A stretch of 63,218 nt of DNA, the filler included, from Basidiobolus ranarum (lineage: Eukaryota), in assembly GCA_040143965.1 (NCBI GenBank). It is 13 parts of 13 records of this genome, joined end to end, with 100 filler letters (N's around TTAATTAATTAA, not from the genome) between each part and the next. Parts side by side here need not be neighbours in the genome. Positions count along the whole stretch, not along the records: positions 24,399 to 29,171 come from JASJQH010001835.1; 12 more parts are not named here. One strand, written 5' to 3'. The notes beneath the pieces are model-generated. The model was given only the letters and a program-made list of their open reading frames with translations, was not told the DNA's origin and did not search any database. Each line of letters opens with the position of its first letter. Position 1 is the stretch's first letter. This document shows, piece after piece, positions 9,669 through 45,362 of this stretch. A program made the position numbers and the translations under genes.

Positions 9669-9768
9669 NNNNNNNNNNNNNNNNNNNNNNNNNNNNNNNN
9701 NNNNNNNNNNNNTTAATTAATTAANNNNNNNNNNNNNNNNNNNNNNNNNNNNNNNNNNNNNNNNNNNN

Positions 9769-11948: not shown

Positions 11949-12050
11949 ATATCAAAAAATACCAGAAACTCGATGAATATCAAACAAATAGTAAATCAAG
12001 ATCAGAGGTAATCAAGGACTCAAATCAAGATCAGAGCTAATCGAGGACTC
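11906..12050 (+). repeat. Two adjacent short tandem duplications (28-bp x3, 29-bp x2)
   Basis: CCAGAAACTCGATGAATATCAAAAAATA at 11906, 11934 and (variant) 11962. AAATCAAGATCAGAG(G/C)TAATC(A/G)AGGACTC at 11993 and 12022. Confidence 0.9.
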
Positions 12051-12278
12051 TATCTTAAGAGCGATATTCCTTTTCTGTGCGATGTTCATTTTTTAACTGT
12101 GTCAATAAGTCCTGACATAGTGGCTAATTAATCTCGAATAGTGCTCAATAGATTCCATAACAGGATTAATATATTTAAATAAGATTTCCAAGTCTATAGG
12201 ATTTAAGCCTATCTGACTTGCTCTTGCTTGATCATATTTAATTTTGTTTCTTCATTTCTTTCATCACTTCGGATACCG

Positions 12279-13416
12279 ATGATTTCTGCTGCATCCTGGC
12301 GCACGTTTAAAAGTTTCAAGTTAAAGGTGACGATTTGAGCTTATTGAACAATATGCTAATTCAATTAAATTGGAGCTCATTGAACAATATACTAATCCAA
12401 TTAACAACCCCATTAATCTTCATATTTAGTTACTTGGTGCCGTGATTATATTCGTTTTCACATCGGCACTATTGCTAATACAACTTCGTCGAGGTATCCT
12501 CTACTTATTATATCTTGAACAACATGCAATTGCTAAACCTTTTATTACTCGAAAAGAAAAAGACATTTTACAAAGTGGTGGCAGTTTAAACAAAGTCTAT
12601 TCTCATGAGTTTTCTAAAACAGGGCTGGGAAATAAATTTTCTGAAGTTCTCATAGGTCTCTATTTTGCTCGAAACAATGGACTCAAGTATAAGTTCGACT
12701 ATGACTCTTTTGTTTTGAACCATAGAAAGGACGACTACGAATGGTTTGCAGATCTGCTCGCTAGTCGCTATAACGCTCCAGGTGTTTACAATAAACTTGT
12801 CCAAGCCAAAGACTTACTTGGTCGCCAAAGCCTCACCACTGAACAAGTTACCCATGGTTATAATGGCTTCTTCTCAAGACACTTTGAGAACTGTGGTGAA
12901 GTTTCGAATTGTTTCATGGCAGAGGTTTCATTTTTCAACGCAGTTCGAGAACTTCAGGACTTGCTTAATATCAGAAGCAGAGTTCATCGAGTAGCAATTC
13001 ACTTGCGCTTCGGAGATATAGGTTCATTTTCTTCTGTAAACCATTACCAGCAAATTCTTCGTAACCTCGACAGAATCAACAAAGAAATCATTCCAGAAGA
13101 TAGGGTTCACTTTGTTTACTATACAGCAAACGATAGGGAAGATATTCTTACCGAGTTAAAAGTAAAATTTCCAACGGCTCATTATCACAATATGAGAAAG
13201 GTTGAGGACACTATCAAGTTTCTTGCAAGTTCACAATACCACATCACTTCCGGATCCAGTCTAAGTTACATGGCTGCCTACCTTTGTCCTGATTGCCATA
13301 TCATATTTACGGAGCCCAAGGAGCGCTTTATTAGCCATCTGACTGATGAAAATCTCAACAAAACATTTTATTACATGGATGAATGGATACCTTACTACAA
13401 ACTTCTTGACAACTGA
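12279..13416 (+). CDS. Putative GDP-fucose-dependent fucosyltransferase (GT11/alpha-1,2-FucT-like), type II membrane protein, 2 exons
   Basis: Exon 1 12279-12326 (MISAASWRTFKSFKLK), GT-AG intron 12327-12429, then an in-frame exon 2 with a TM segment (LLGAVIIFVFTSALLLIQL). Motifs GLGNKF, VAIHLRFGD and FLASSQYHITSGSSLSYMAAYL resemble GT11 GLGNQ, HxRRGD and I..NSTFSWWAAYL. Confidence 0.68.
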
Positions 13417-14177
13417 GAACGTTGGGTTATACCTTCTCTTCTTACTCTTATGCTTTGTTGATGGGCGTTCAAGTTAAAACACATCATTTGTAATATTTTT
13501 TTTCAACCGTTTGTTATTCCAATATTAATGTAATGCTGAAATTCTATTTGAATAAATTCTAATCATATATACATATGACATATACCATAAATTGAAATAT
13601 TCTCTTCTAACCCTGCTTATTATCAAATTTAATCTTGATACCTAGGGGGGAGACAGTCACCAATAGGTGAAATCTTTATTTCAAGCAAAACAAAGAAGCC
13701 ATAACTACTGTTGTAGTTTCTTAATTAAAGTGTGAAGTTCTGGAGTATTGGTATGAATGTTGCAAAGTAGAAAAGTTAAGTCAGTAGAGTCTAAGATACT
13801 ATTAAGTGGAGTGAGAGGGATCAACAAAGGTAAAAATGGTTTGTCAACAATTGAAATCAGTGGAATGAGACTAGGATTCACATAAAGCATAAAGGGAGTG
13901 TGTTTCTAAAGATATTGCTGCCAAAGGTCTACCAAGTATTCCTTGCAGGCCAGGAAGGGCTTCTCAGCTTGTTCTATAAAGGAAGCAAATTTCTGTCTTC
14001 AGGATCTCCTAGCAGTATTCTCCAGCAAGATGAAAGATCAGAGAAGTGGGAACCTCTGCAGGAAATATCAGAGGGGTCTGACTCTTGCAAATCCTGATGA
14101 ATAGTCTAGTCATGAGGTAGATTGTTCTAAGACTGTGTGGAAGAAATCTAAAGGCACCAAGAATGGCATGTCTATAA

Positions 14178-14530
14178 CTCTAACAGAAATTTGAGGATTG
14201 TTATTGTAGGAAAACTGTCATAATTTTAATCCATTTGGGATTGACTGTTTACTTACCATCATAAAATTGTCAAGTTAGATTTGACTTTAATCAATTTTTT
14301 CAGCTTCAAGAGTGAAATTTCAAGATCTTGCAAAATATTTGCACATGATTGGCTACAATCTCAGAAAACTATGGATCAACACATGTGCAAAAAATGTAAC
14401 TCAAATTCTACACATTTACCACTTGAATGCTAATTTGTCACCTTTGAAATCCCTAGTTTCTTTGATTTATTCTCCTAAATATTTTTATAGAGTACTTCAT
14501 ACTCAAGGTTTAGCTCATATGCAACACAAG
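14178..14530 (+). mobile_element. CMC/EnSpm terminal fragment
   Basis: Starts CTCTAACAGAAATTTGAGGATTG, homologous to the ends at 25941, 45363 and 63080. Confidence 0.75.
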
Positions 14531-14647
14531 TAGGGGGGGGGATGAAANNNNNNNNNNNNNNNNNNNNNNNNNNNNNNNNNNNNNNNNNNNNTTAATTAAT
14601 TAANNNNNNNNNNNNNNNNNNNNNNNNNNNNNNNNNNNNNNNNNNNN

Positions 14648-15346
14648 CTTGGTTTCCCAGCCATCACCCATATTTTCACCACGAGTGGGTAAGATGATAT
14701 TGGAAGCAGGTGAGAAATGATCATTAGAGGCGGTAATAACACGAGCACCACTACCAACGGAAGCCAAATCAATAAGCTCCTCTTTGTTTTCAGGGAAATT
14801 GGGAACAATGGTACCATAGACACGGAAGCGAGCGATACCACCATCAGGGAATTGATTAATACGAATGAAGTTGTAAGTGGTCTCTGTAGGAACGTTAAGA
14901 AGGAAATAGTGTTTAGAATCAGGGTTCAATTCAACCTTGGGGAGAAGTTCTTCCCACTGATAGTTAGGTGGTTCTCCTTTGTTTAATTCATCATCACTCA
15001 CAAAGCAGCCCTCAACGGAAGCAACTGGTGCGTGGTTACCGGTGAAATGTGCAGTATCAATATCAAAGCCAACAACAGTACCAGGGAAGCCAAGTTGAAT
15101 AATGGCCCAATCGTGGTTCTGATTATGACGGCGAGTTTCCCAGCCATCAAACCAAGCGCCAGTTTCTACGAACTTGCCAATTTCACGAACGGAAGGCTTA
15201 GGATTTAACATATTGGATGCAGCAGCAAAGAATTCGTCAGAGACATCCACAACCTTGGAGCCTAGCTTGCAGTTAGCTAAGTCAACATAGTTGCCTAGAG
15301 GTGTGTTCTTGATATCATCAAGGGAGAGTCGGGTATAGGAAGACAT
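14648..15346 (-). CDS. DAL2: Allantoicase, 3'-truncated
   Basis: VSDEFFA, GAWFDGWETRRHN, DIDTAHFTGNHAP, FPDGGIARFRVYG, MGDGWET; two allantoicase repeats. Confidence 0.95.
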
Positions 15347-16659
15347 TGTGATCGTCGAGGAATTATCAAACCACTAGCGCTTAAAAGCATACAAACGACC
15401 GTATTTATGTTAAGATGAAGGATAGGGGATTAAGAATGAGATAGAAAACTTATCTCGGAAAAGGGGTGTTGGGGTGTTTGATAATCTTTTCCATGATAAT
15501 CTGAACTTCCATATTCTTCGTAATTTTCTAGGTGTGAGAGTAATCACAGTTAGATCCTATGAGGAATATTATCCTGCATGATAATCTCTAGCAAGGGCCA
15601 CAAATTAATATCAACTGATTTTCCGCTTTCTCACTCAAACTTGCAAGCTATTACAAAGCCTTAGCGATAGCTCATATATTATACGCGGGTTGACCGCAGG
15701 CTCATGACCAATCTATACTCAGGGTCCAATCTGATTGTGTAACTTGACAGTCTGGATGACATCATATCCGACCAGACTCCATATAAGCTAGCACAACTAC
15801 GCTACAACTATGCAAATTGAAGCTGTTCAGATGATATTGGTATTCAATTGGAACGACATTGTTTTTGAATTTTCACCAGTAGTACAAATCTATTGAGCCA
15901 AGATAAACCACCGATTAAATGGACTCAAGATTCTCGAGTAGTTTGCAACTGGCCAGCCTTGATTTGCTCTCAACATCCACTCAGCAGCCGGTTGCATAGT
16001 TAGGCAACGCCCAAATGTGCACATTGACAGCAGTTGGCATGGTGTCTCATGATTCACTACGAAACTGAATCTTTGACTGGATAGTTGCCCAAATGTGGTA
16101 AATAGATGCTCGATTTAGAAACAATACAGTATGCACAGTGATGGGTAAATCCTATTTTCCCTTCAGATGTAGCTTCAACCGTGTCTTGAAATATTAACAA
16201 AGACTATGTCTATGCATACAAGGCGATATCAGCACTTTCTCTCGAAAGAGAATCTTTAAGCATAGGACAGATATTCTGCTGCAGTATCAGCATCTCTGTA
16301 TCCGATTAGATCGGATTGACTCTGGGGCGCTGCTAGAGTTGCTAGTGGTGATTATATACAGCTAGCTCTTGTCTTCAATTTATCAAGCGTATCAGCGAAA
16401 TGCAAAGGATTAACCGTAACGCTCATTCCCTCATTTTCGTTCAAAAATTAGCGAACAATACGGGTAGCAGCCTGTACTGCATGATAAAATCTACGATTTT
16501 GTGCGATGATGAAGGTGTCGTTACGTTAATTCCTTGAGAATAATATAAATATAGTTGCATTCATACTAGAGTAGTTTATCTAACTTAAAGACTCTCCAAC
16601 TTTATCATTATCTCCAGAAATCCCTAATTATCACTGTGACATTTAGAAATACATCACTT

Positions 16660-17784
16660 ATGCATTCAAAAATAATATTGTCAATCACTTCGGCTCTGAC
16701 ATTCAGTGGGGTTCATGGAGCGAAATTTGATTATTGTGAAGGTGAGTTCGCCAAGAGCAACTCAAACTGCCAGATGTTCGATTTCCCAGTAAAAGCACAG
16801 TCACTTTGCGCACCTAAACTCCCTTCAAACTATCGAACAATCCTTGATAAAGAGAAAATGGATCCTCGAATGAAGAAAATGATTAGGTTGATAACTAACG
16901 TGTTTGAACACGCTAGTAAAACCATTAATTACGGGTTTTGCGAAAATATCGGAGACAAACGGGGGTATACTTGTGGCACAGTTGGATTCACTACTGGAAC
17001 CGGTGACCTCTATACTGTAATAGATGAATATGAAAGGCGTTTGGGAGCCGAAACTGGATTCTCTAGGTACCGCTCTGAGCTTCGCAAGTTGGCCAGTCAC
17101 AGCGATTGCAGTATCCCAGATGGGGATGTAAGTAGGTTGGCAGCGTTTGCGGAGCTATGGAAGCGAGAGTCATGCCTTGCTGAGTTTCGTAGCGTTCAAG
17201 ACGATGTTGCCGATATGATTTATTATTTACCAGCTGTGGAGATGGCAGCTGAAGTAGGAGTCACTTCAAGTCTCGGTAAAGCGGTATTTTATGATACAGC
17301 AGTTCAACATGGGTGGGAGGAAGATGACGGATTAAGTTTAAAGACAATTATCAACCTTGCTGGTCCGAAATCCACCTCTAGTGAACAGGAATACTTGGAA
17401 AGATTTCTAATTGTGCGCAGAAAGTTGTTATGTTGCTATCCAGATAATGTCTGGCCAGATTCTGCAGATCGCGTTAGTGATTTGATGGGCCTGGTCAGCT
17501 CAAATGACCTCGAATTCAAAAATTCCATTATACTAGAAGCCTACGAAACTACGATCACTGGTAACGAAGAGTTATTTAGTCCATGTGCGAATCCACCTAG
17601 TGGTCCTTCAATTCCAGAGCCGGGCCTGGAGCCGTTTCGTAATCGTACACCAATCAACGAAGCCAAGTCCACCTCTGGGGAAGAGGTAGACCTGCCCTAC
17701 GATGCATTGTCGGCAGGAGTTAGAACCCTATCGACAGCATCCTCTCTTCTTATTGGCATCTTAACCTTACTCTTCTCTAGATAG
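16660..17784 (+). CDS. Secreted, probably GPI-anchored chitosanase (GH46)
   Basis: First ATG at 16660 with a signal peptide. GH46 catalytic Glu (NVFEH) and Asp in IGDKRGYTCGTVGFTTGTGD; FYDTAVQHG. Pro/Ser/Glu linker and hydrophobic C-terminal tail. Intronless. Confidence 0.85.
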   Translation: MHSKIILSITSALTFSGVHGAKFDYCEGEFAKSNSNCQMFDFPVKAQSLCAPKLPSNYRTILDKEKMDPRMKKMIRLITNVFEHASKTINYGFCENIGDKRGYTCGTVGFTTGTGDLYTVIDEYERRLGAETGFSRYRSELRKLASHSDCSIPDGDVSRLAAFAELWKRESCLAEFRSVQDDVADMIYYLPAVEMAAEVGVTSSLGKAVFYDTAVQHGWEEDDGLSLKTIINLAGPKSTSSEQEYLERFLIVRRKLLCCYPDNVWPDSADRVSDLMGLVSSNDLEFKNSIILEAYETTITGNEELFSPCANPPSGPSIPEPGLEPFRNRTPINEAKSTSGEEVDLPYDALSAGVRTLSTASSLLIGILTLLFSR

Positions 17785-24398: not shown

Positions 24399-25476
24399 AC
24401 ATCTGATCATTTGCGATTTTTGTGCACAAACACCCCCATCCAAGGGTGACAAAATCACGATTTTACTAGTAAAAAAAGACTTTGATTATTTTTGGGATGC
24501 TTATTCTCACTAATCTATGTGCGCTTTCCCTAACCACCTGTGCAAAGATTTTGTAATTGGATATGAAAACCTTTATTACAGGTTTAAAAAAGATAGAATG
24601 AATCCATACTGGTATTCAATACATTCCCGGCTGCATCTTTCACAATGCGTAGAGATTATTGGCCTGTGCTGTACATTCCAGGAGTTCCCAATGGAGTGCA
24701 CCTGCAGTGAAATGATGCATGTGTGAAATTGTCAATATTACCATATGCTAATCTGTTTAACAATGTATCAGCAAAATCAGTGATGAATGTAATGCAATGG
24801 GTTAAGGAGACTTCAGAGTATATTAACCTGCCATCAAAGGCCTCTTTTCAATTTACTTGTGGGTTTTTGCATTGATTGAGAGCAATAACAGCAACAAAGC
24901 CCAATCCATGGACACAGAGTAAGTGTCTCTATAATTGGACTAATTTGCTTTTGTGATAATCTGATGGTGTTTTAGGAAAGCTGCAAGACAGAAGTCTTGG
25001 TGAGATAGATTAGGATATGTGGTATTATCGTTTTAGCCATGGGGTAATCTGTTCCAGAATGACACATCTACTTGTGGCAGGACATTTGTTGACCGCAGGA
25101 AAGGGATATATTGGCTGAATTCTCTATGGAAATATGCCAAAATCCAAGAGCTTATTCTCATTGTGAATAGTACCAAGAATCAGCTATTTGTCAAGTGTCA
25201 GTGCTATTCAAAATTTCAGATGTTTAGCAATTTTTTCATTATTAGTTTGTGGGTAAGTGTTTTTTGCACATGCATTGATACATAGTTATCTGAGATTGTG
25301 GCCAATCATGCACAAGTATTTGGCAAGATCTTGAAATTCCATTCCTGAAACTGAAAAAATGGATTAAAATCAAATCTAACTTGACAATTTTATGATGGTT
25401 AGTAAATGGTCAGTCTCAAATGGGTTATCATTGTGATGGTTTTCCTACAATAACAATCCTCAAATTTCTGTTAGGG
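24399..25476 (+). mobile_element. Degenerate CMC/EnSpm transposase 3' part followed by an inverted terminal segment ending ...CTGTTAGGG
   Basis: YSIHSRLHLSQCVEIIGLCCTFQEFPMECTCSEM..VKLSILPYANL matches the fungal CACTA/Tnp2 H.L.H...GP....W.FPMER.CG motif. 25260-25476 is the reverse complement of the terminal segment. Confidence 0.75.
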
Positions 25477-25509
25477 TAAGTGAATTAAAATTTGCTACTG
25501 GAGCCAAAG

Positions 25510-25935
25510 TGTCTGTATATACTTATGAGAATAAGCTGTTGGATTTTTGCAAATTTCTGTAAAGAATTCAGCCAATATATCCCTAACTTGCAGTCAACAA
25601 ATGTCCTGCCACAAGTAGATGTGTCTTTGCTTGAATAGATTACCCCATGGCTAAAACAATAATACTGCATATCTTAATCTATCTCACCAAGAAGTCAGTC
25701 TTGCAGCTTTACTAGAAATACCATCAGATAAGCACACAACCAGATTAGTCCAAATTATAGAGGTACTTACTCTGTGTTAATCAATTGGACTTTGCTGCTG
25801 TTATTGTGCTCAAACAATGCAAAAACCTGTGAGCACATTGAAAAGAGCACTTTGTTAGAAGGTTAATATACTCTGGAGTCTCCTTAACCCCTTGCATTAC
25901 ATCCATCACTGATTTTGCTGATGCATTGTTAATCA
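25510..25935 (-). mobile_element. Inverted fragment of CMC transposase 3' region
   Basis: Reverse complement of about 24750-25170. Confidence 0.7.
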
Positions 25936-26446
25936 GCTTACCCAAACAGAAATTTGAGGATTGTTATTGTAGGAAAACTGTCACAATTTTAATCCAATTG
26001 GGATTGACTGTTTACTTACCATCATAAAATTTTCAAGTTAGATTTGATTTTAATCAATTTTTTCAGTTTCAGCAGTGAAATTTCAAGATCTTGCAAAATA
26101 GTTGCACACAATTGGCTACAATCTCAGAGAACTATGGATCAACACATGTGCAAAAAATGTAACTTAAATTTTATACAATTACCACTTGAATGCTAATTTG
26201 TCACATTTGAAATCCCTATTTGTTTCCAAAAACCTAAGATAAGCCAAATGAAATAAGTCAAGTGTTAAAAGTCTGGTGACTTGTGGTACAAGCAGTAATT
26301 CCCAAAGAGGAAAATACGGAGAATGGTGACTGCATCTGAACATAAAGTCTAAGGCCAATCAGTTGCTTGTATAGCTGAAATGCCAAAAGTACCATACTTT
26401 GACAGACTAGGTTAAGGTTCCCTAGCAATATAGGCATAGCATACAA

Positions 26447-26519
26447 GGACTGGTAGCTCAGTGGTTAGAGCACCTTGCTAGAGTGAAGGAGGTCCCAGGT
26501 TCAATTCCTGGCCAGACCA
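26447..26519 (+). tRNA. tRNA-like module in LTR1 (pseudo-tRNA, nominal anticodon AGA)
   Basis: 73-nt cloverleaf: acceptor GGACTGG/CCAGACC (A3:A70 mismatch), D arm GCTC/GAGC, anticodon arm CCTTG-CTAGAGT-GAAGG, short variable loop AGGTC, T arm CCAGG-TTCAATT-CCTGG. A box TAGCTCAGTGG; B box GGTTCAATTCC. Confidence 0.8.
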
Positions 26520-26779
26520 ATATTTCTCCCTAAATAATTTCAACAGGTTATGAGCCCCGGTTAGTGCTAAATCCGGAAATCCTGCTTGAGGGGGAATGTT
26601 GAAAGTCTGGTGACTTGTGGTACAAGCAGTAATTCCCAAAGAGGAAAATATGGAGTATGGTGACTGCATCTGAACACAAAGTCTAAGGCCAATCAGTTGC
26701 TTGTATAGCTGAAATGCCAAAGTACCATACATTGACAGACTAGGTTAAGGTTCCCTAGCAATATAGGCATAGCATTCAA

Positions 26780-26852
26780 GGACTGGTAGCTCAGTGGTTA
26801 GAGCACCTTGCTAGAGTGAAGGAGGTCCCGGGTTCAATTCCCGGCCAGACCA
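26780..26852 (+). tRNA. tRNA-like module in LTR2 (pseudo-tRNA, nominal anticodon AGA)
   Basis: Identical to the LTR1 copy except T stem CCGGG/CCCGG. Confidence 0.8.
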
Positions 26853-27167
26853 ATATTTCTCCCTAAATAATTTCACATCCTGAACCTTCCAAGTAATGCC
26901 TGGTTTATTGTTTTTCCACAATTGGCTTAAATCCAGGTGATTTTGGGCAAGATTTGGCATAGTTTCCAAAATGTTAAACCACTCATCATCAGAGCCAGTG
27001 ATGGCAGCTGTGACATTCAGAGTCTTTAGGGTTGCTGGATTTCCTATGAGTTTTCTACTTTCATATGCCCGAGCAATTTTGGGTCATTGGGTAGGCTTAA
27101 TAGGCCAACACTTATTCTGCTCTGCTAGATTGTCATGGTGACATTCAAATGTATGGAGTGGGATTGA

Positions 27168-27779
27168 TCAAAATCCCATATGAAAATGGACTGAGGGAAC
27201 AGCACGTTGCTGTACCTCAAGTACTGCATTCTGAAGGTCTTGCATCATTATTGAGTGACTCTCTAACTTTAACCTAGTTGCTTTTGAAGGCTGCAACAAT
27301 TGCAATATTGCGGCATTATTGCTTGTCATGGCCTGTTTAGCAACTTCATAGTTTTTACTTCTGATTGCATACAAACCATTATGGTGTTCTGCCTGCAATT
27401 CCCTTATTGTAATAATTCTATTCAAATTTTCTACAGAGGGTTGTTCAATTGTGGGCAAAGTAGCCAATTTGGAAGTTGATGGTCTTGATAGTGTTTTGGT
27501 TGAACTTTGCTCAACTGTTGATTTACTGTGTAATTGGGGAATCACAATCACTTTACTTGCACTATTGCTGGAAAGGAACAAATCTGGTAAATTGATTAAT
27601 GCTTCATCATTACTTGAGTTAGTTACAAGCATGTTAATGCCTTCCAAAATGGATAGTGGATTGCTAGCCCGCTCCTCAATTAAGTTCTCTGTTCTTGCTG
27701 TTTTTTTTCCTTTTGTGCTAGCCGGCTTTGGCTTGGTAGCCAATTTTGACTTGGATTTTGAAGGCTTTTTGAATGGCAT
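27168..27779 (-). pseudogene. Transposon-borne accessory ORF of unknown function (basic N-terminus, coiled coil)
   Basis: MPFKKPSKSKSKLATKPK... Homologous broken copies at 31519-32070 (+), 46490-47147 (+), 48340-48649 (-) and 3387-3560 (+), always inside the CMC repeat. Confidence 0.6.
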
Positions 27780-29271
27780 TGAAATTTTCAGATGGTAAGC
27801 TTGGTGTAATGAAATTGTTTAGAAACAGCTTATAATAATCCAAAATTGCCATCCATTACCAGAAATATGTTGTAAATCCCCTGATGACTTATATGTGACA
27901 CTATCTCAGAATCAGCCAAAGATATTGATAGGCTATATCTAAAATACCACCCTTATGTGGGAGGTGTTCTTTTTTCTACAATATCCTACTCATGCTGCAA
28001 CACAAATGCTTAAAGAAGCCCAGCTATTATTGTTGCAAATTCTTGTGCTATGAAAGCCCAAGGCTTCATAGAAAAAATAATCACAAGCACAGTCACTGTA
28101 CAAAATCACCGGCTGCACAAAGCCTGGTGTATAACAATGGTAATAAGTGCACTAAATTGACTTTAGATTATCAACAACTATTTTGAGGATACAGTGACAA
28201 AGGGAGTAACAGGAGTCAACTAAATAACTCTGGCTGCAATTTAGCATGGTTAACATTGTTGAGAGATTCTTTAAAAGGATTTCACCATAATGTATTGTCA
28301 AAATTAGGGGGTCTTGGAGGTATTGGAGGTCTATCTCTCAAGAAACACCCTGAAAAACTTGTCAAAGAAATTAATCCACAGTTTTTAGATCTTGTAGATC
28401 TTCCCATTGGAAAAAAGTATCAAGAGAAGAGCATTACCCCCATCACTGGTCAGATTTCAAAATGATCACCAATAGCAATTCACCAAATAGTCAGTCTAAC
28501 ATCAAGCTTGGTATAAGCTATAAGCCTAAGATTATATTGCTAAAGGGGATCAGCTGGAGCCAGTGCTTCCCAATAGGCACTATGCACTTACTATTCACCA
28601 ACATTCCAATACTACATACTCAGCTATATAGTGGAAAATTCAATATGAATGAGCCATTTGAGATAGGATCAAAGTTTGAATCCACTGGGAAAATGCTGAA
28701 AATATCAAGATACCATCATATTTTTCCAGGACTCCTATTAATATCGACTGATCTAGGTGTTTATTCAATTGCAAAGACTGGAAATATTAGATTTGTATAT
28801 ATTCAAGTGGATTTTTGAAAAGATTTCTGCCTGCTAAGTATTAGCAACATTGGGAGTTGTTTGTCAATTTTGTTAATATATTCTTATGGCATCCATTCAC
28901 ATTGGCAGATCTCAGGCAGATACATCAACTGTGCAAAGATTTTGTAATTGGATATGGAAAACTTTATCACAGGTTTAAAGAAGACAGACTGAATCTATGC
29001 TGGTATTGAATACATTCCCTGCCACATCTTTCTCAATGCTTAGATATTATAGGCTCTTACTATATATTCTGGGAGTTCCCAATGGAGCACACCTGTGGTG
29101 AAATGATGCTCCATGTGAAATTGTCAGTATTACCATATGCTAATTTGATTAATAATTTATCAGCAAAATCANNNNNNNNNNNNNNNNNNNNNNNNNNNNN
29201 NNNNNNNNNNNNNNNTTAATTAATTAANNNNNNNNNNNNNNNNNNNNNNNNNNNNNNNNNNNNNNNNNNNN

Positions 29272-30790
29272 GAAAAAGGCCAAAATTCTGTTGGAAATTG
29301 ATCTCTACAGAGCTGGAAACCGGCTGTCTGTGAGGTTTACTAAATATGCAATCTTCACACAGATCCTATTAAGTGATATTTTCAATTACTAAGCCTGATA
29401 CAAGCTGATATCAGATCATTTGGGTCAGCATTTGTTCCCCAATGTGGCCTAATCTTCCATGCCATGGTTGAATGCTTAATTTATCAATTTTGGCCAAGTT
29501 TCCTTGCTTAGAATACATTTTGTTTTAAAACTAGCTTGTATAGGTTTTGGGTTTTGATCTCAGAAGCTAATTTGGTATTATTCTGATCACTGATGGTGCA
29601 TCCAGCTTTGCTGAGCATGAAATTTAGTCCCTGAGTTGTTGCCTGGCTCACTAAGAGTAGATTCTTGGCTATATCAACTACATAGAGTACATCATCCAAT
29701 TTGGCAGATGGTGTGGCTGAATTCCAGTCTAAATTGAGCACAACTGCACCCTTACCAACTGCATCTAGTACATAGTCATTTCCTAACTAGACTTACATTG
29801 TTTGGATGGGTTCTAAGCTGGAAAACCAATCTTTCTTGTTCAACATATGTTGGGAAGCTCAGAAATCAATGTATCATATTTCTGAGTCCTCTTTAGTGGT
29901 TACTGATAGGGCAGACCCTGTTAGATGATCCCAATCAGTATTTACTTGATTTGCTTGTTCCAATTTTAGCTTTTGGGCAAAAATCCTTTTTTTGCAATCT
30001 TTGATAAAATGGCTTGGTTTCATGCAATACTTGCAGATGATTGCTATTCCATAAGGAGTACTATTATCAAAGCCTGTTACATATTTTACAGCTTCAAAAA
30101 ATGCCTGATATGAATTTTGTTGCTGAGAATTAGATCTCCATAAGTCAATAATTAGAAGCCTAGCACCCACTTTTTCCATTATTAATGGCTCTGATCTTGA
30201 TTTTAGGGCAGTTATGAGGCTCCCAAACCTATCTGGCAGGCTCCCAAGTAGTGTCATGATCAATATACTTGATTTGGAGGTGCTGCAATGGATAAGAGCT
30301 GATCAGCCTTGGTTTTTATCTAATTTATATGATTAAGCATAGAATATCAGAATTCATCTGAATTGAGAATAATTTTGCCCAAGATATGACCTATTAGCCA
30401 GACTTTTAGCCTCATTTAGTCCTGCAAATGTTTCCCAAGCATTTTGGATGCTTTTGGCTGATTGTATGTGCCTTAATTGAGAGTTTCTGAGATGTAGACA
30501 AAGTATAGAGTGCATTCCTCTGCTTCTTGTGAAAGGCTAGGATAGCTTCTGGTGGTCCCTTTGGCCTATTTCGTACTCCATGACAAATCCCCAAAGGTCC
30601 TTGTCTTCTAGCACCATTTGTATCTTGAACTTCCAAAGGTGATAGTGTCAACCATCAAACTTCTCTGAGGATGCAAAAACATTGGTCATAGTACTAGTAG
30701 CCATTCAGTTAACAGCTAGTATGGGGCTCATAACCTGATGAAAGTGCTAGGAGATGTGGAGGTGTATGGTAAAAGTGTAACAAAGCTAGT
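29272..30790 (-). mobile_element. Degenerate copia element, 5' half (LTR end, PBS, gag, zinc knuckle, protease, GAG-pre-integrase)
   Basis: PBS at 30723-30735 (reverse complement GGTTATGAGCCCC). IMTLLGSLPDRFGSLITAL; CKYCMKPSHFIKDC; LDDVLYVVDIAKNLLLVSQ; WHGRLGH. Confidence 0.88.
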
Positions 30791-30899
30791 AAACACCTGG
30801 CTGCTCAGATGGATTGAACACTCCACTAATCATTGATGAAAGTAGCTTCCTGTGCTTTAGGTGTAATATGTTGAGATATGCTTGCTAATAAACAAGAGT

Positions 30900-32115
30900 C
30901 ACCAATAAAACATTAGCTACTTCTTTGTCTGTTTCTGATATACTGCCATCAGTACTGGAATAACCAAGGTCAATATTTAGCAGCCTGTCCACAAAGTTTT
31001 CTGGACTTATTGGTTTAACCAAACTTGCACTTTGACCAACATCTTTGTGGTCATATAACTATGATATCTACAGCACATCATGACTTTCAGCTCACTTATC
31101 AAAACTTTGAGATAAAGTACAACTAAAGCATGCAGCAGGCAAAGCTCCAACAGTCTTTGTGCAATTGTTACTCTTGATACTCACCAGGCTTGGCACAGCT
31201 GGTGTATTGGTACAATGACAGTGCTGATGCTCCTTTTGTCTATGAAGCCTATGGCATTCACAGCATAAGAATTTTTGACAATAATGGTAAGAATTCTTTG
31301 AATTTTTATGTTAGGCCATGAGAAGAATACCATAGACTAAAGCACCCCTACTAGGTAAAGGTGGTATTATAGGAATATCCCATTGATACCATCAACTACC
31401 TCTAGGATGGTGCCTCTGATGAGTTCTCAGATGATTTATAAGATATTATTGGTAATGGATGGTAATATTGGCTTAATAAAGTTGTCTATAAGTTTTAGTT
31501 AACTCTCTGAATAGTCTAATGCCATTGAAAAAGCATTCAAAATCTAAATCAAAATTGGTTTCTTGGCAGAAGACTGCTGGCAGGAGAGGAAAAAGACCAT
31601 CAAGAATAGAAAACCTGATAGGTGAGCAGTCTGCCATTCCACTATCAACTTTGGAAGACACTAACATACCAGGAACTAACTCAAGTAGGAATGAAGTGGT
31701 TATCAATATACAAGATGAGTTCCTTTCTATATATAGCGCAAGAGAAGAGATTAAAATTTCCAAGTTTCATTGCAAATCAATAGTTGAGCAGATTTTCACA
31801 GACACACTGTCAAGAATATCAACTTCCATAATGACTACATGGCCAAATATTTCACACTTATCCATAGACAATATGGATAGAACTGTTACAAATTGGGAAT
31901 CTCATGCAGAACTCTAATGATTTGTATGTAATCATAAGTAATAACTAAGAAGCTGCTTTTCATACCAATTCAGTCAATTACACAGCATTATTGTAATTAA
32001 TGCAGCACTCTGACACAGCTAGTCATTAGTTAAATAGTCACCTGATAATAATACAAGACCTTCAGAATTACTTCCAGGAGACTCTCAATCCAAGAAGGCA
32101 AATCAATATGGGATT
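30900..32115 (-). mobile_element. Degenerate CMC element, central region (divergent intergenic region plus accessory ORF 31519-31917 on +)
   Basis: Reverse-complement homology to about 27170-28200. Confidence 0.65.
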
Positions 32116-32600
32116 TGTTGAAATTAGGTATATAGCAGCTTAATATTTGGCAGTTTGTTAATTTGTATTTTTAACGTTTAGACCTCAATGCTAGTTATCA
32201 AAACATGTGTTTATTACTTTAATTCATAGATATCAATTAGATCACTTGTGCCAATTATGAAAAATTACACAACACTTTTTCATATGTCCTTAAATTTACA
32301 ACAATGTTTTACCAGCTTGTTTGTTATGATCTAAACATATCTAATGATCCTGTTTCAGAACAAACTATGCACATGCCATATTGAAGTCAATAAATCTTAT
32401 GTGCTGAATGCACAATTTTTAGTCTTTTTAACTGCTTAAAAGCCACAAGTCAGCTGTCAAAGGAATGTCACAACTGCTATTTTCAGTGTTTGCATCTCCA
32501 GAGAAGTTATATTATGAAAATCATTAACTTTGCTAATAAAGATGCAACTGTTGCTATAAGATAAGCTCCCTTTGGGAATTGTGCAGGTTCTTACCGTAGT
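32116..32600 (+). mobile_element. Old copia LTR with eroded PBS and gag start
   Basis: Starts TGTTGAAATTAGG; collinear with the LTR at 3034-3386. Confidence 0.65.
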
Positions 32601-33506
32601 CAGTTACTTACCAGTTATTAATTGTGTTACAGTCTGCAATATATACTTTAACTCTTTGTTAAAGGTTTCAAAGTAAGAACCCAGATGGAAGTAAGCTACC
32701 AAACCACAGACACCTTAAACAAGAAATCTAGACTGCAATCACCAATGACACAGCCATTTTTGGTGAGAGAATACCATATGCTATTGAGAGTTGAAAACAC
32801 CAAAGCTCCCTATGAGACCAATGGAAGAAACTCCAATAGAGATTGATACAGTGAATGGAGAGCAACTACTGAAGATGTAAGCAAAGTGATTGTGCTTTAC
32901 ACACCAAAAGAAGGGACTTTATTATAGATATTGTCAAGGCAGCAAGGCATGGGATGGTAAGAAGAGCTTGAACATTGGTGTGATTCTCAATGAGTCAGAC
33001 AAAAATCAACAAGAAACTTAGGCCACATTGCAACAGAATGCTGAATATCTTTGGAATGTGAATGAGAACTCAGGAAGACTACTATATCTCAATAGAGTTA
33101 TATATGGAACTACCACCAGAATGATGATTGACATAGCTGCACCCCATAAGTACATACCATCTCAGTTTGCCAACAAAGCAGAAATCTACTCAGGCCTCTT
33201 CCAACCACCATTGTTTCTACTGGAACTTGAACAGCACACTTTAGTGGTTAAACTACAAGTTTCTTGCAAATCCCTACAGGAGACTATCAGGATGGTATAC
33301 AAACTAACTTGTTTGAGAGCTTTGATTTTGACTTGATGCCTAGAAAGACCTAACTATTCAGCATCCAAATATTAACTGGAATACCCAAGAGATTACTGTG
33401 AGAAAAGAAGGCAAGACATATCTACTTATGTCAGCAAGAATGGAGGATACCATTTTCAAGACCAGCCAAAAGAGTCATATACCTGCCTGTCTGAGTCAGT
33501 TCAGCC

Positions 33507-34043
33507 AGTTGAAATTGAGTCTATAGCAATTCATTATTTAGTAGTTAGTTTACTCATACTCTGATTTTGGCACTCAATACTGCAATTCAAAAATGTGTGT
33601 TTATTGTTCTAATTGATAGAAATATCAATCAAATCACTCTTACCAATCTTCACTATTTTCTCAACACTTCTCCAAATCACCTCAAATTTTCATCCATGCT
33701 TAACAGGCATCTTTGTTATGCTCTAAGTATGTCCAATAGTTCAATCTCATATGAAACTATAAATAGACATATTTAATTCAATAAAACTTAAGTGTCAAAT
33801 TCACAAATCCAAAACTTGTCTATGACACTTCCATATCTCCTGCGCAACTTTATTAAGTTACAAGCCTCAGACTAGCTGTTTGAGGAATGTCTACTGACAT
33901 TATTACCAAGGTTTTTGCATATACAGAGAAGTTTGATGGTGAAGACTTTCATCTTTGGAAGTTCAAGACATCAATGGTGCTAGAAGACAAGGTCCTTTGG
34001 GGATTTGTTACAGGAACAGAAATAGAGCCAAAGAGACCAGCAG
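33507..34043 (+). mobile_element. copia 5' LTR (33507-33855), degenerate PBS and gag start (33887), truncated by contig end
   Basis: LTR homology; AGTTACAAGCCTCAG at the PBS position; MSTDIITKVF..EKFDGEDFHLWKFK..MVLEDKVLWGFVTG. Confidence 0.85.
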
Positions 34044-34143
34044 NNNNNNNNNNNNNNNNNNNNNNNNNNNNNNNNNNNNNNNNNNNNTTAATTAATTAAN
34101 NNNNNNNNNNNNNNNNNNNNNNNNNNNNNNNNNNNNNNNNNNN

Positions 34144-36153
34144 GAATCTATGCTGGTATTCAATACATTCCCTGCTGCATCTGTCATAATGCTTTGAGAT
34201 TCTAGGCTCTTGCTATACATTCTGCAAGTTCCCATTGGAGTGCATCTGTGGTGAAATGATGTTTGGTGTGAAATTGTTAATATTACCAAATGCTAATCTG
34301 ATTAACAATGTATCAGCAGAATCAGTGATGGATGTATTGCAATGGGTTAAGCAGACTGCAGACAATATTAACGTTCCACAACAGGCTCTTTTCAATGTGC
34401 TCACTTGTTTTTGCATTGTTTAAGCACAATACATGCAGCATAACTCAGTCCATTGACTCCAAGTAAGTACCTCCATAATTTGGGTGAACTTGTTTGTGTG
34501 ATAATCTGATGGTTTTTTTAGTTGTTGACTGCAAGTTGAGGATATTTTGGCTGAATTCTTTATGGAAATTTGCAAAATAAAAGAGCTTATTCACACTCTG
34601 AATGGTAATAAGAGTCAGCTATTTGCCAAGTGTCAATGCTATTCAAAGTTTTGGATGTTTAGCAATTTTCCCACCATCATTTTGCTAGCACAATATATAG
34701 ATATTGCTGAGTTATGTCTGCTCAGTCAACTATGTGCATATGTAGATACTAAGCACAACAAAATTCTTGTATTTTTTGATTTTCACTATTGCTGGAATAC
34801 AAAGCCTTAAATATCTAAATATAGGCATGCATTTTAATTCAAATTTCTATAGCAGTAAACCCAGTAATTTGCCATTTGAAAGTAAGTTTTTTGTGAAAGT
34901 TGTTAGAAACTAAATAATGCAGATCAAGTATAAGGATCAATATTCATCATATATGAACACCATCAAAATCTTGTCAAGAAGCCACCATCTTACTATCAAA
35001 TAACCTGGCTGAATGTAAGCTATCAATGTTGTGATGGTCCTCTGATGGGTGGATCCAATCTAGATCAAATTGAATTTGTTTTTGTTAAGGTCTCTATGCT
35101 CACAACCAATTACTGAAAGAGCATTTGTGCTGTTAAGATATAATATCTACAAGAAGTTTGAATCTGATTGAACAGGACCATGCAAATTTATTAATTATAA
35201 AAATTTACCATATCTGGAAAAAAATTAGCAATGCATATGGATAACTTTGTGGAGCCTCCATTTGCAGAATTGGAATGGGTATCTTATGGGGTTCAGTTAG
35301 ATGAGTATTCTTTTACAGTAGGTATAATTGTATATGTTGGTGGCACTCTTGCCATTGAGAAATTTGGAGGTTCCAGCATGCAGAATGTGCCATCATGCTG
35401 TAGATTCTATCAGATCAATGGGCTTTACAGTATTAGGTATATGTAATACTACTATCCAAGTACAACACTGGACTCCATGACTTTACCATCAAGTGCCTGA
35501 TCAGATCTCAACATGCTCACTGATATCAATTCACTAAATGGTCAGTCCAATTTCAAACTTGAAATGGGCCATAAGCCTAGGATTATGTTGCTTAAGGGGA
35601 TTATCCAGGGCCAGAGCTTTCACATTAGGCACTATGCACTGACTAATCAATAATATACTAATACTGTTTACTCCACTACATAGTGGAAAACCAAGTCTGA
35701 ATGAGCCACACAAGGTCTGAGCATAGTTTGAATTCATTGCAACAATGCTTGAAACTTGCAAGACACCATCAGATTTTATTGGGACTCATATCAAAATCCA
35801 TTCATTGGGGCATTTATTCAAATGTAAAGACTGCAAGTCTTGCATTTGTATATATTCAAGTGAAATCTTGAAAAGATTACTGCCTGACAAGTAATGTGCA
35901 TCAGGAGTTACTTGTGGATATTTTAATATTTTAATATGGTGACAAGTCACATTGGCACATCTTGAGCAGAAACAGCCGCTGTGCAAAGAGTTTTAATCAA
36001 ATAAGAGAACTTTATTACAGGCTTAAAGAAGATAGACTGCACATACGCCAGTATTTGACATATTGCTGCAGCATCTTTCACAATGCCCCATAATTACAGG
36101 CCCTTTGCTATACACTCTGGGTGTTCCCAATGGGGTGTACCTGTGGTGAAATG
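34144..36153 (+). mobile_element. Degenerate CMC/EnSpm transposase fragments (two partial copies)
   Basis: IHSLLHLS...FPLECICGEMMFGVKLLILPNANLINNVS at 34150-34320. A second copy at ~35300-36153 (RGLSRARAFTLGTMH; FPMGCTCGE) is cut by a copia LTR. Confidence 0.72.
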
Positions 36154-38914
36154 TGATTAAAGTGATTAGGGGATTTGGAAGTGTTTTGGACAAGATTAGG
36201 ATTTGTGAATTAGACACTAAAGTTTTATTGAAATGAATATGTCCTGCATATAGCTTACTATGAAATAGGACTATTGGACATGGTCAGGTTGTAACAAACA
36301 TGCCTGTTAAGTATGGGTGAAAATTTTAGGTGAATTGGCAGAGTTTTGAGAAAACAGTGAAAATTGGTAAAAGTAGTCTAATTGATACTTCTATCAATTA
36401 GAGCAATAAACACACATTTTTGAATGACAGAATTGAGTGCTAAATAATCAGAATACAAATGAAATTACTACTAAATATTAAGTTGCTCTTTACCTAATTT
36501 CAACATTCCCACTCAACTAAATATTTTTTATTTCTCATAAACCTAATGTATATCTTAATAATTTAAATTTTGATTGAGATAAAGGTATGGTTAAGATGTC
36601 AGCAGTCAATTCTTCACTAGGGCAATAGACAAGTTCAATTATACCATACTCTATTGCTTCTCTAACTAAATAATGCCTAATATCTGTATATTTGGTTTTA
36701 GCATGAAATGTTGGGTTTTTAGCTAATAAAATACAACTTTGATTGTCTTCAAATACAGTAACAGCATGTTTTTGCGCATATCCTGAGTCTGTAAAAATTT
36801 CCTTAACCACATAGCTTCTTGTGTAGTAGCAGAGGCAGCCATTTACTCTGCTTCTGTAGTGGAAAGTGCTATGGCTAGCTGGTTGCTTCTTACTATTCCA
36901 AGTTATGGCTCCATTACCATAGAGAAAAGTGTACCTGGTTGTTGATCTTCTATTATCAAGGTTTCTTTCCCGGTCTGCATTACTGTAGTCTTCAAAATTT
37001 TGTGCATCAGGTGTGGCAGGGTATTCCAGCACTAGATCTACAGTTCCTCTGAAATATCTGAGTATTTGTTTTACTGCAGTTTTGTACTCAGATCCTGGAT
37101 TTTTGAGATATTGGCTGACAGTTCCCACTACCACAGCAATATCTAGACATGTTCCAACCATTGTATATATCAAACTACCCATCATGGATCAATAAGGGAA
37201 CTCCTGGCTTTGATTTGAGTAATTTTAGGCCAAATTGGATGAAATTTTAATTAATTTCATATTGGGATATATTGGTGCAGATACAGGCTTGCTATTCTTC
37301 ATATTGAAGTGTTTTAAAAAGTCTAGGATGTATCTAGACTGATTCAGCATGATTTTCTGATTGGGGTTATCTCTCTTGATTTAGATTCCAAGAAAGTAAC
37401 TTTATTCACCCATATTAGTCATCCAAGATTGGTTTGATCAGCTGCTTTTCATCTGATTCAGAGCTTCTAGATCATTTGCAGCTATGATCAAGTTATCCAC
37501 ATATAGTGCCAAGATAAGAATCCTCTTTCCAGTTCTTTTGATTTAAATACTTTAATCTGCTGGGCATTTTTTGAATTCCAGTGACTCCAAATAGGTATCT
37601 ATCTTGTTGTACCACGCTTTAGGTGCTTGCTTGAGTCCATATAGCAATTTTTGCAGTTTACAGACCATATCAGAATGTTTGAGTCAACAAATTCATCTGG
37701 TTGCTCCATCAAGATCTCTTCTTCTGTATTTCCATTCATAAAGGCTGTTTTAAATCCATTTGATGTAGATCAAGGTTATGAATGGCTGAGAGCACCAAGA
37801 TTGATATAATGGAGCCAAACTTAGCTACTGGAGTAATGTTTCATTAAAATCAACTCCAGGAGTCTGTGAACAGCATTTTGCAACTAATCTTGCTTTGTAC
37901 CTTTTTTTATGTTTTATCATCTTGGGTTTCAACTTTGTATACCCACCTGCAACCTATTGGCTTTCTCCCTGATGGAAGAGGACTTATAACCTATGATTTA
38001 ATGTCCTGAAGCTATGAAACTCATCTGACATTGCTTTTTCCCATAAATGTGATTCTGGACATTCCAGAGCTTGATCTAGAGTCTGTGGCTTGTCACAGAA
38101 TGCTTCATAAGCATATACATCTTCATTGGAAGGGTCCCACCAGTTTCCTGGCTTATATCTCATTCTGGTTGATCTTCTGGGTCCTGAATCATCTGCTGAT
38201 GTAATTGGGACTGGAATTTTGATTGAATAGAGCTCAGATACAGCTGAAATTTGTCAGACACATCCTGAATAGTGCTGATTGTTTTTTTGGGATCAGGAAC
38301 TGCGATTTGAGATGAAACTTTTGCTTTTTCATCAAAAATCGCATCTCAACACTTGATTACTTCTGATTTTTAGTATCAAACAGTCTGTAGGCCTTAGATT
38401 CATCACAGTAACCAAGAATTATGCATTTTCTAATACACTGTGCAACCATAGATCCTGTGATGATCCACACTTTGTTTTGATACATATAGGGCTTCAAATG
38501 GGTAGAATTTTGTCGCAATCTTGTTGAGCATCTGTTTTTGATATAGACTGCAGTGGAGACAGGTTCAGCCCAATATTGGTAATTTAACTCTTGATCATGT
38601 AACATTAATCTTGCTAGCTCCACTATGGTACAATTAGCATGTTCTGCAACTCCATTTAGCTGTGAGGTATAAGGAAACAGTAGTCTGTTGCTTAATTCCA
38701 TGTATAGAGCAAACACTAGCAAAGTCTTTAGAGAAGATTTCTCCACCATTATCACTCCTTGATAAACTTACTTTTCATGTTGATTCTTTCTCTATCATTG
38801 CTTTGTAGTACTTGAACGTAGCTATGGCTTCAGATTTTGATTTGAGAAAGAATACCCAAGTATATCTTGTTCCATCATCAATAAAGGTCATAAAGTACCT
38901 TTTCCCACCTAGTG
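36154..38914 (-). mobile_element. Degenerate copia element, 3' half (integrase, RT, RNase H, PPT, 3' LTR 36154-36505)
   Basis: PYTSQLNGVAEHANCTIVE, YWAEPVSTAVYIKNR, PIGCRWVYKV, YGLKQAPKAWY, LALYVDNL, GSLIYTMVGT, AITWNSKKQ, FEDNQSCI..KTKYTDIRH. PPT TTGAGTGGGAA precedes the LTR start TGTTGAAATT. Confidence 0.92.
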
Positions 38915-40054
38915 NNNNNNNNNNNNNNNNNNNNNNNNNNNNNNNNNNNNNNNNNNNNTTAATTAATTAANNNNNNNNNNNNNNNNNNNNNNNNNNNNNN
39001 NNNNNNNNNNNNNNGTTCTACAGTTGAAGTATGGGAAAAAGTTTTAGGTGCCACTTGGGGGGATTTAAATCAACTTGAATCAATAGGATTAACTCTATAT
39101 ACTAATTTCTTTATCTCTTATTTGAATATCCATGTTACCATTGTTCAAGACCGGGATCAAGATTCCATATTGCCATTTATCTCTTTGTTTTGCGAATCTG
39201 GCTGAGGTCTTGTTCATCTACGCAGTTCCCAGTTAGATAAGCTCAGTACAAGGTGCTGTTCGCTTGCTGCAAATTTGATTCATTATTCCTAATCCCCATT
39301 TGATTTAGCAGTGCATATATATATGTGTGTGTCTATGATTCGACTGGTCTCAAATCCTTTCCAGAAGAGGCAAAGAAAGCTAATGTTGTGTTCTGGATCC
39401 GCCTTCCATCTCCCTACTTTTGTATTATCACCACCAACAAACAATTCTAATTCTAATCATCCTGACCCCCCCACTTCCTTTTGTTCCACATCCATTTTAG
39501 AATCATAACAATAAGCGATTATTGTTGGATCAGAATATTTACAATGACATATACGTTGCTACTGAGTAACATTAGTTAACCGATCAATGAATGATTAAGG
39601 AGAGATAGAGTTGACCATTCTATAGTCATTTATATTAACGCATATAGCAACAACCAATTCACTTCCCCACTTGTCTCCCCACTATAAAATCTCCAACCGC
39701 ACCATAATTTTTTTTCGCCACCATTCGCTATCACGAACTAGCCTATTCCCCTTTCGGATTTTTGAGTAACAATCTTTACCTGCAATAAGTTTTTGCTACC
39801 AAAGCACTATCTCTTTTTTACAAACTCCTGTCAAGTTTTAATTTGTGCTTTAATCTGTCTTTCGTCTCATTTTTACCTGGGGTACTCGCTCATATTCGCT
39901 TTCTATTGAACCTTCCGGCTTCTTTATATTTTCTCTCGTTTTCCACTGATTTATACTTGTACATCGACCTCTATCTTTGACATTCAAGGCGTCCTTTCAT
40001 TACTACACTTTCTGTTGCTTAATTGGGATCTTCCCTGTACTATCAGTGAACAGC

Positions 40055-44200: not shown

Positions 44201-45362
44201 CATAGATTTCTGAATCTGTACTTGATAAGATCTAAAACTCGAAGCGTAATGGAAGTAACAGGTAATTATATCTCAACTAGGGAATAGATTTAAGATATAG
44301 CTCGAATATAGCCATAAAGTAATCACAAACTGATTTGCAACAAGACAAACTAGGACGATGTGCCAATCATCTTGCAGATAGCTAAGTATGGTTCCCTAAC
44401 CCTAATTATCCACAACCTCTATAGCTTATTGACTGTTTAATTATGACTATTGTAACGATCAAATCGAAGCTGATTCTTAATATGCATAAAAGATATCCCG
44501 AAAAGACACAACGAGCAAGCTTGTCCGTAACACCTCAGACACTCGTCATGTTTTCAATACCATTAGAGAAGATTGAAACCATCATCTTACTTCCCAAAAC
44601 ACCACATTACACCATCATGCAATTCCACTCTCAACAATCAGCAAGTTAATCGAGCTAGTTTTCTCAGGTGCTACTATTTGATTGTAAATAACTATCTCTG
44701 AAATTATTACCTTGCCTGAGCTTTTGTCACTAAGATTTGTAATTTTTGATTGCATGAGAAGGTTTTAGGTATGCTGCATTTTTCATCGAGATCTCTTTGA
44801 TGACTCTATTCTGCTGAAGTTAATTGCTCGGATTGTAGGTTTGATCCCTATACCTATGCACCTATGCAGAAGTTAGCTATTATAATTTAGTCAAATATCC
44901 TGAGCTGTATTATAAGCATATATTCAGGATATTAGTGAAATATCCAAGATTCGGGATGTTGAATTTGAAGCTTTAAAGTTGGCCACATTTATCCAAATAT
45001 AGCTTTGCCAACTCCCACAAATATCTGAGCACAACCTTCTTGCTTACCTTCTTGCCTGCTTAAGTACTCCTGCTCAAAATATGAATTCAAAATAATGGAT
45101 TAATATAACCATCTCTCAAGTCCACAAAATATCCATTTTGCAAATACTCGTTCCAATGCACCTCAAATTCTTTCAGTATATTCCAGTGTAAAAAACATCT
45201 TTCCCATTGGCTTCTGGCATCACCATTAATGCTTCAAGCTTTACAACTGGAAGCTTATAAAATTTCCATATCTCACATTTGTTAAGAATAGACAGATTGT
45301 TGCGGCCAATTTAGATTGGCAGTGAGTATGTAAGTTAGCTATTCCAGAAGTGTATCTATTAC

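Follow-up and report, generated by a model that had tools for sequence, protein, structure and literature searches.

We identify, with good confidence, positions 26263-26877 of a 63,218-nucleotide stretch of Basidiobolus ranarum DNA (GenBank assembly GCA_040143965.1) as a Helenus-type terminal-repeat retrotransposon in miniature (TRIM), that is, a 615-bp non-autonomous retrotransposon that carries a tRNA-derived module in each of its two long terminal repeats (LTRs). The whole stretch, called the window below, consists of 13 parts of 13 records of this genome joined end to end with filler, and the element lies in the part taken from record JASJQH010001835.1. Basidiobolus belongs to the Zoopagomycota, an early-diverging phylum of fungi. 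The element class has been known since the description of Helenus in 2024 (Kojima 2024, PMC10886601), in agreement with a sequence-only reading that preceded this analysis and named Helenus as a reported kind of tRNA-bearing TRIM. The Basidiobolus member is new, and it comes from a fungal phylum not listed among the hosts in Table 1 of that description.

The sequence-only reading had proposed a miniature, non-coding LTR retrotransposon with TG...CA ends, and measurement confirmed this layout. Two LTRs of 283 and 281 bp, both running from TG to CA, enclose a 51-bp interior without coding capacity (see the feature table), giving 283 + 51 + 281 = 615 bp in total, which is inside the Helenus size range of 311-1263 bp. 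A primer-binding site (PBS) abuts the 5' LTR (LTR1) and a polypurine tract (PPT) abuts the 3' LTR (LTR2), as had been proposed, with 27 bases of interior between them, and it is this order of LTR, PBS, PPT and LTR that bears out the assignment to the TRIMs. Between the two LTRs there are 8 substitutions over 281 aligned columns, along with two indels of one base each (96.8% identity over 280 by blastn). With an LTR divergence of 2.8%, the copy at 26263-26877 looks like a relic.

A 73-nt cloverleaf with boxes A and B had been predicted for each LTR, and ARAGORN, Rfam and pattern matching agree on it. ARAGORN made two tRNA calls in the whole window of 63,218 bases, both within the LTRs and at the same LTR position, and both modules matched the Rfam tRNA family with an E value of about 2e-11 and bit scores far above the gathering score of 29. 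Boxes A and B are intact and identical between LTR1 and LTR2. A search of 25500-27700 against Rfam at E values of up to 1 returned four matches, namely the two tRNA-like modules and two sub-threshold matches on the opposite strand (32 bits, with a gathering score of 65.7), and none to 5S rRNA. Both LTRs of a new LTR-retrotransposon copy are templated from a single RNA. Because the two LTRs hold the module at the same position, it must already have belonged to the transposing unit at the last round of reverse transcription, and a later insertion into just one of the LTRs is ruled out.

It is very improbable that the module functions as a tRNA, because anticodon and body do not fit each other, two pairs are mismatched and a terminator is lacking. 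AGA (Ser) stands at the anticodon position of a class I body whose variable loop has 5 nt, whereas eukaryotic tRNA-Ser requires a long variable arm; the two non-standard pairs found by Rfam lie in the acceptor stem and in the anticodon stem, one in each. Self-priming of the element by its own tRNA-like module was also rejected, the longest exact complement between module and interior being 5 nt. The anticodon-arm part of the module had 0 matches in two exact-pattern scans of metagenome contigs. Both tRNA calls in the 63 kb count as false genes. Elements of this kind inflate tRNA gene predictions, and tRNA-bearing TRIMs should be masked when Basidiobolus genomes are annotated.

One T-stem pair appears compensatory at first sight, being A-U in LTR1 (26497/26509) and G-C in LTR2 (26830/26842). 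Each of the two changes is a transition from CpG to CpA/TpG, a type to which three of the eight substitutions between the LTRs belong, and CpG is strongly depleted, so that CpG decay of the methylation type in LTR1 suffices as an explanation and the pair was rejected as a sign of selection on the fold. The observed/expected ratio of CpG is 0.17 in the element (5 CpGs) and 0.07 in the repeat block at 24500-39000, where that of GpC is 1.23; it amounts to 0.79 in the genic stretch at 9717-17784 and to 0.49 in the whole window. The CpG loss in the repeats suggests repeat-targeted cytosine methylation followed by deamination, or a process acting on CpG that resembles repeat-induced point mutation.

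Feature table. Coordinates of the element, its target site, the host-repeat paralogs and the Ty1/copia (Copia) copies, counted along the whole window (Pol III, RNA polymerase III)
Feature	Position	Strand	Remarks
Presumed 5-bp duplication, 5' copy TCAAG	26258-26262	.	Equals empty site of paralog B
LTR1 (5' LTR), 283 bp, TG...CA	26263-26545	+	Direct repeat of LTR2
tRNA-like cloverleaf of LTR1, 73 nt	26447-26519	+	ARAGORN; Rfam RF00005, 57.8 bits
Box A of LTR1, TAGCTCAGTGG	26454-26464	+	Pattern match; fits TRGCY...YGG
Box B of LTR1, GGTTCAATTCC	26498-26508	+	Pattern match; GGTTC kept as in Helenus
Interior, 51 bp, without coding capacity	26546-26596	+	
PBS GGTTATGAGCCCC, abuts LTR1	26546-26558	+	Predicted complement of initiator tRNA-Met anticodon stem-loop
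PPT region TTGAGGGGGAA, abuts LTR2	26586-26596	+	Common to Copia interior/3' LTR junctions
LTR2 (3' LTR), 281 bp, TG...CA	26597-26877	+	
tRNA-like cloverleaf of LTR2, 73 nt	26780-26852	+	ARAGORN; Rfam, 58.0 bits
Box A of LTR2	26787-26797	+	Pattern match
Box B of LTR2	26831-26841	+	Pattern match
Presumed duplication, 3' copy TCCTG	26878-26882	.	Five bases extra relative to empty sites
First downstream run of at least four T (TTTTT), in flank	26911-26915	+	Candidate Pol III stop (putative role)
Host-repeat paralog	46504-47348	-	
Host-repeat paralog	48087-48649	+	
Host-repeat paralog	3449-3805	-	
Host-repeat paralog	31156-32068	-	
Copia copy c1, degenerate	1-3386	+	Partial 5' LTR 1-212, PBS 213-225, broken gag-pol, 3' LTR 3034-3386
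Copia copy c2, degenerate	29321-30735	-	PBS 30735-30723, followed by remnants of gag and of the protease region (Pol_BBD)
Copia copy c4, degenerate	36153-38912	-	Remnants of integrase, SH3, reverse transcriptase and C-terminus 38912-36538
3' LTR of c4, shared PPT before it	36505-36153	-	

The element has its short cis signals in common with a Ty1/copia family, of which the window contains at least four degenerate copies that are 70-86% alike. The 13-nt PBS is identical (13/13) in two of them, at 213-225 (+) and 30735-30723 (-). Exact copies of the 12-mer GGTTATGAGCCC were found at 26546 (+), 213 (+) and 30724 (-) and nowhere else in the window, each of them right after an LTR end; when up to two mismatches were allowed, seven matches were found against 2.79 expected, a number that 2/100 shuffles reach. 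Because a published antisense probe against yeast tRNAiMet has this 12-mer at its 3' end, the PBS is predicted to pair with the anticodon stem-loop of the initiator tRNA-Met (tRNA-iMet), with CAT in its centre, and not with the tRNA 3' end; this complementarity was judged on the yeast probe, the host's own tRNA-iMet lying outside the window.

A similar agreement was found at the other end of the interior. The junction between interior and 3' LTR reads TTGAGGGGGAA/TGTTGAAA in the TRIM, TTGAGTGGGAA/TGTTGAAA in Copia copy c4 and TTTAGGGGGAA/TGTGGAAA in Copia copy c1, and over PPT and LTR start the TRIM matches c4 at 18/19 nt and c1 at 17/19 nt (MAFFT and motif search). On both strands of the window this motif occurs in only three places, all of which are interior/3' LTR junctions. 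The LTR 3' ends are similar as well (...TTTCATCA and ...TTTTATTA in Copia, ...TTTCAACA in the TRIM). Local alignment of the LTR bodies, in contrast, scored 9 and 10 where shuffles had a mean of 10.3 (200 shuffles each), and a derivation of the TRIM LTR from a Copia LTR was rejected, there being no similarity above that of shuffles. By their sequences, the TRIM and the Copia family thus share exactly the short cis signals of reverse transcription and integration and nothing else. Because PBS, PPT and LTR termini are common to both and the LTR bodies are unrelated, the neighbouring Ty1/copia family is probably the mobilising partner, which backs the earlier proposal that the element was mobilised in trans. 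It is unusual for an autonomous partner to be indicated as directly as here, by a PBS, a PPT and LTR termini at both ends that are all shared, and the unrelated LTR bodies fit the idea that short cis signals alone suffice for trans-mobilisation.

In Pfam, the Copia fragments scored 34.5 bits with Pol_BBD and 73.7 bits with SH3_retrovirus (cutoff 27), with weak matches to rve, copia-type gag and zinc knuckle. A 217-aa open reading frame (ORF) just upstream of one Copia 3' LTR had 27 protein matches (E of at most 0.001, 561 candidates), most of them with RVT_2 and many also with rve and a copia-type gag, at a best identity of 42%. By tblastn, a polyprotein of 1356 residues taken from these matches was collinear with three of the copies, with integrase before reverse transcriptase, which is the Copia order. 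For a 136-aa integrase/SH3 fragment, no protein match was obtained at E values up to 0.001 among 39 candidates. In copy c1, which derives from this family by internal deletion and is non-autonomous, the interior measures only about 2.8 kb, and the stretch for polyprotein residues 922-1185, part of the reverse transcriptase, is missing between 2529 and 2532. The window contains 1056 N in total, and runs of N interrupt the frames at 29063-29365 (-) and 38778-38966 (-) in two Copia copies.

The element is inserted into an older repeat, and this host repeat (26882-27818) has at least four more copies in the window that are 71-84% alike. When the element was excised and the site aligned by MAFFT with three paralogs that offer an empty site (near 48087 (+), 3806 (-) and 47350 (-)), the alignment was uninterrupted, and the site was exactly 5 bases shorter in all three (3/3). 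The 5' flanking 5-mer, TCAAG, is identical to the empty site of paralog B and one base off in each of paralogs C and D. Against a duplication speaks that TCAAG and the 3' flanking TCCTG agree at only 3/5 positions. The 5-bp target-site duplication put forward in the sequence-only reading is therefore indicated by the five extra bases and not proven by the 5-mers. Because the 5' 5-mer equals one empty site and is one base off the other two, it is the 3' 5-mer that probably changed afterwards, at two adjacent bases.

On the 3' side of the insertion, a 216-aa open frame of the host repeat at 27171-27818 (-) had no Pfam match and no usable Atlas match. The 5' flank at 24749-26225 is a nest of inverted segments, in which 24749-25161 matches 25940-25525 and 25260-25488 matches 26157-25929, each at 86%; more copies of these segments lie at 14177-14531, at 45355-45713 and at the window end (63080-63218). 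This flank may be a foldback or terminal-inverted-repeat element.

We propose the following working model for the propagation of the element. TFIIIC and Pol III would use the A and B boxes in LTR1, with a transcription start a few bases upstream of 26447, and the resulting RNA would extend across the interior and LTR2 to a stop in the flank. It would thereby bear the tRNA-like segment and the downstream part of the LTR at both ends, that is, a repeat for strand transfer. Such a read-through RNA with terminal repeats is possible because there is no run of at least four T on the plus strand inside the element (0 on the plus strand and 4 on the minus strand over 615 bp); the first such run lies 392 bases past the LTR1 module, outside the element. 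Copia Gag-Pol, supplied in trans, would package the RNA, and a 3'-truncated initiator tRNA-Met would prime the minus strand, as in Drosophila copia and yeast Ty5. The shared PPT would prime the plus strand, and Copia integrase would recognise the shared termini and make a 5-bp staggered cut.

A conventional TRIM driven by RNA polymerase II (Pol II), in which the module goes back to an old insertion of a tRNA or short interspersed nuclear element (SINE) that became fixed in the LTR and is carried along as a passenger with no promoter role, differs from this model in the transcription step alone and leaves structure and Copia dependence unchanged. The plus strand free of runs of four T may lend weak support to Pol III transcription, such strands making up 72/2116 (3.4%) of the 615-bp strand-windows. 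For the non-redundant unit of 334 bp, the proportion is 339/2274 (14.9%), and 646/5000 shuffles likewise lack a run of four T; once the redundancy of the LTRs is allowed for, the T-run-free strand is not significant, which counts in favour of a Pol II-driven TRIM, and we rejected it as strong evidence for Pol III. A near-canonical cloverleaf might, moreover, attract cleavage by RNase P and RNase Z, by which a genomic RNA made by Pol III would be severed, and because the module could be cut in this way, the Pol II-driven TRIM with a passenger module stays a live rival. The Pol III promoter function of Helenus itself is called not experimentally validated by Kojima 2024 (PMC10886601). As for the partner, no Copia copy in the window is intact, each being disrupted by stops, frameshifts, deletions or assembly gaps, and among the intact polyproteins found the best reaches no more than 42% identity. 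Against a mere passenger stand boxes A and B, which are intact in both LTRs despite the 2.8% divergence, and the lack of a terminator after the module, unlike in a captured tRNA gene; in addition, the sister class Cassandra is reported to be transcribed, with conserved Pol III elements (PMC7215508). We consider Pol II transcription with a passenger module unlikely, though a good deal short of implausible.

A second alternative concerns the origin of the miniature. A full-length element with tRNA-bearing LTRs could have undergone an in-place deletion of its interior; the miniature so formed would be single-copy and would never have moved as a TRIM. The window speaks for this alternative and against our reading in that a single element was seen within its 63 kb: relaxed blastn and nhmmer searches revealed no further copy, solo LTR or fragment, the best non-self blastn match being 23 nt long (E 0.049) and nhmmer returning only the two LTRs. 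Copia copy c1 further demonstrates that internal deletions occur in these sequences. A loss in place would, however, have had to spare exactly the PBS and the PPT, which are kept 27 bases apart and represent the minimal functional set; no Copia LTR in the window resembles the TRIM LTR, as judged by the alignment scores given above; and a class of the same layout is abundant in other fungi (PMC10886601). We regard such a one-off event as very improbable. For the TRIM reading, membership in a multi-copy family is expected because a copy-and-paste insertion requires a source copy. Finally, a 334-bp unit with a tRNA pseudogene could have been duplicated locally in tandem, with no retroelement involved. 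This would account for a layout of 1.84 copies of that unit, and tandem LTR-interior arrays are known for Cassandra (PMC7215508), but it is hardly credible in view of the clean empty site with five extra bases relative to 3/3 paralogs, the TG...CA ends of the unit and a 'spacer' that opens with the Copia PBS and closes with the Copia PPT, both common to the Copia copies of the window.

Outside the repeats, the ORFs of the window include Sec23/24, a Mei2-type RNA recognition motif protein and allantoicase. Over 605 residues, the Sec24 ORF at 55199-57013 (-) has the same sequence as an NCBI protein of B. ranarum (100% identity), and it is 85% identical to a protein of B. meristosporus. A long ORF at 9717-11948 (+) combines AMP-binding, phosphopantetheine-carrier and thioesterase domains and resembles a nonribosomal peptide synthetase, and a GH46 chitosanase ORF lies at 16570-17784 (+). 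GH46 is mostly bacterial, and because of this a horizontal acquisition is conceivable; both the synthetase-like ORF and the chitosanase could be candidates for it.

Among known systems, Cassandra corresponds to the element in being a TRIM with a Pol III-type promoter of a small-RNA gene in each LTR and no coding capacity that is mobilised in trans, which for the present element is a prediction (PMC7215508). It differs in three respects. The Cassandra module derives from 5S rRNA, whereas the present one derives from a tRNA, tRNA being the only family above Rfam gathering at 25500-27700; Cassandra has its Pol III terminator in the LTR, whereas the LTRs described here contain no T-run; and the Cassandra PBS fits the 3' end of tRNA-Met, in contrast to the anticodon loop predicted here (PMC7215508). 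Ajax, a group of nemertean TRIMs, shares the TRIMp3 concept, has 5-bp duplications of the length indicated here, and differs by a partial 5S promoter, a PBS for tRNA-Leu's 3' end and an animal host (PMC10886601). tRNA-derived SINEs (SINE2) are likewise short, non-autonomous and parasitic on an autonomous retroelement, with a tRNA head that holds boxes A and B; they lack LTRs, PBS and PPT and are copied by long interspersed nuclear elements, whereas the full frame of LTR, PBS and PPT is present here. Drosophila copia and yeast Ty5, for their part, have a PBS for the anticodon stem-loop of tRNA-iMet after the 5' LTR and a 5-bp duplication (PMC10886601); they are autonomous and use Pol II promoters in their LTRs, whereas nothing is encoded by the element described here.

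The closest correspondence is with Helenus, the name given by Kojima 2024 to TRIMs with tRNA-derived sequence in their LTRs, which together with Cassandra and Ajax make up TRIMp3 (PMC10886601). Helenus families were screened at less than 1000 bp and are described as conserving box A (TRGCY...YGG) and box B (GGTTC). Their target-site duplications measure 4-6 bp overall and 5 bp in fungi, where the dominant PBS type is a complement of tRNA-iMet's anticodon loop and the PBS region resembles that of Copia, with dissimilar LTRs; tRNA isotype and anticodon of fungal modules disagree, with many 'Ser-AGA' calls in rusts (PMC10886601). Table 1 of that paper lists Pucciniales and two Agaricales as fungal hosts, all of them Basidiomycota, and the text adds Amylostereum. 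A 2026 sugar-beet paper names Helenus in passing only. The literature searched, which did not extend to the list of screened genomes in Table S1 of Kojima 2024, contained no report of a TRIM or of Helenus in Basidiobolus.

Like fungal Helenus as described there, the Basidiobolus element has short LTRs with a boxed tRNA-like module, a non-coding interior made up of PBS and PPT, and a size within the reported range; its PBS is similar to that of Copia in the same genome and its LTR bodies are unrelated to it. As in rust Helenus, for several families of which 'Ser-AGA' is listed, the anticodon misfits the tRNA body. The likeness was judged by described features. Fungal Helenus has 5-bp duplications, and here five extra bases are found with 5-mers that are 3/5 identical. 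Unlike the fungal Helenus of Table 1, in which no early-diverging fungus is listed, the element resides in a member of the Zoopagomycota, and it goes beyond Helenus as described in sharing its PPT and the two ends of its LTRs with the candidate Copia partner as well.

With its predicted truncated initiator-tRNA primer, its probable Copia dependence, its presumed 5-bp duplication and its class I 'Ser-AGA' pseudo-tRNA, the Basidiobolus element resembles the families of the Pucciniales, and because of these features one may speculate, at low probability, that fungal Helenus is one old lineage and not an invention of the rusts. If module and interior were homologous to those of rust Helenus, TRIMp3 would predate the split between Zoopagomycota and Dikarya and be far older than the roughly 130 million years proposed; alternatively, the element would have been transferred between fungal phyla together with its Copia partner. 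With the element described here, tRNA-bearing TRIMs of the Helenus/TRIMp3 type are extended to an early-diverging fungal phylum.

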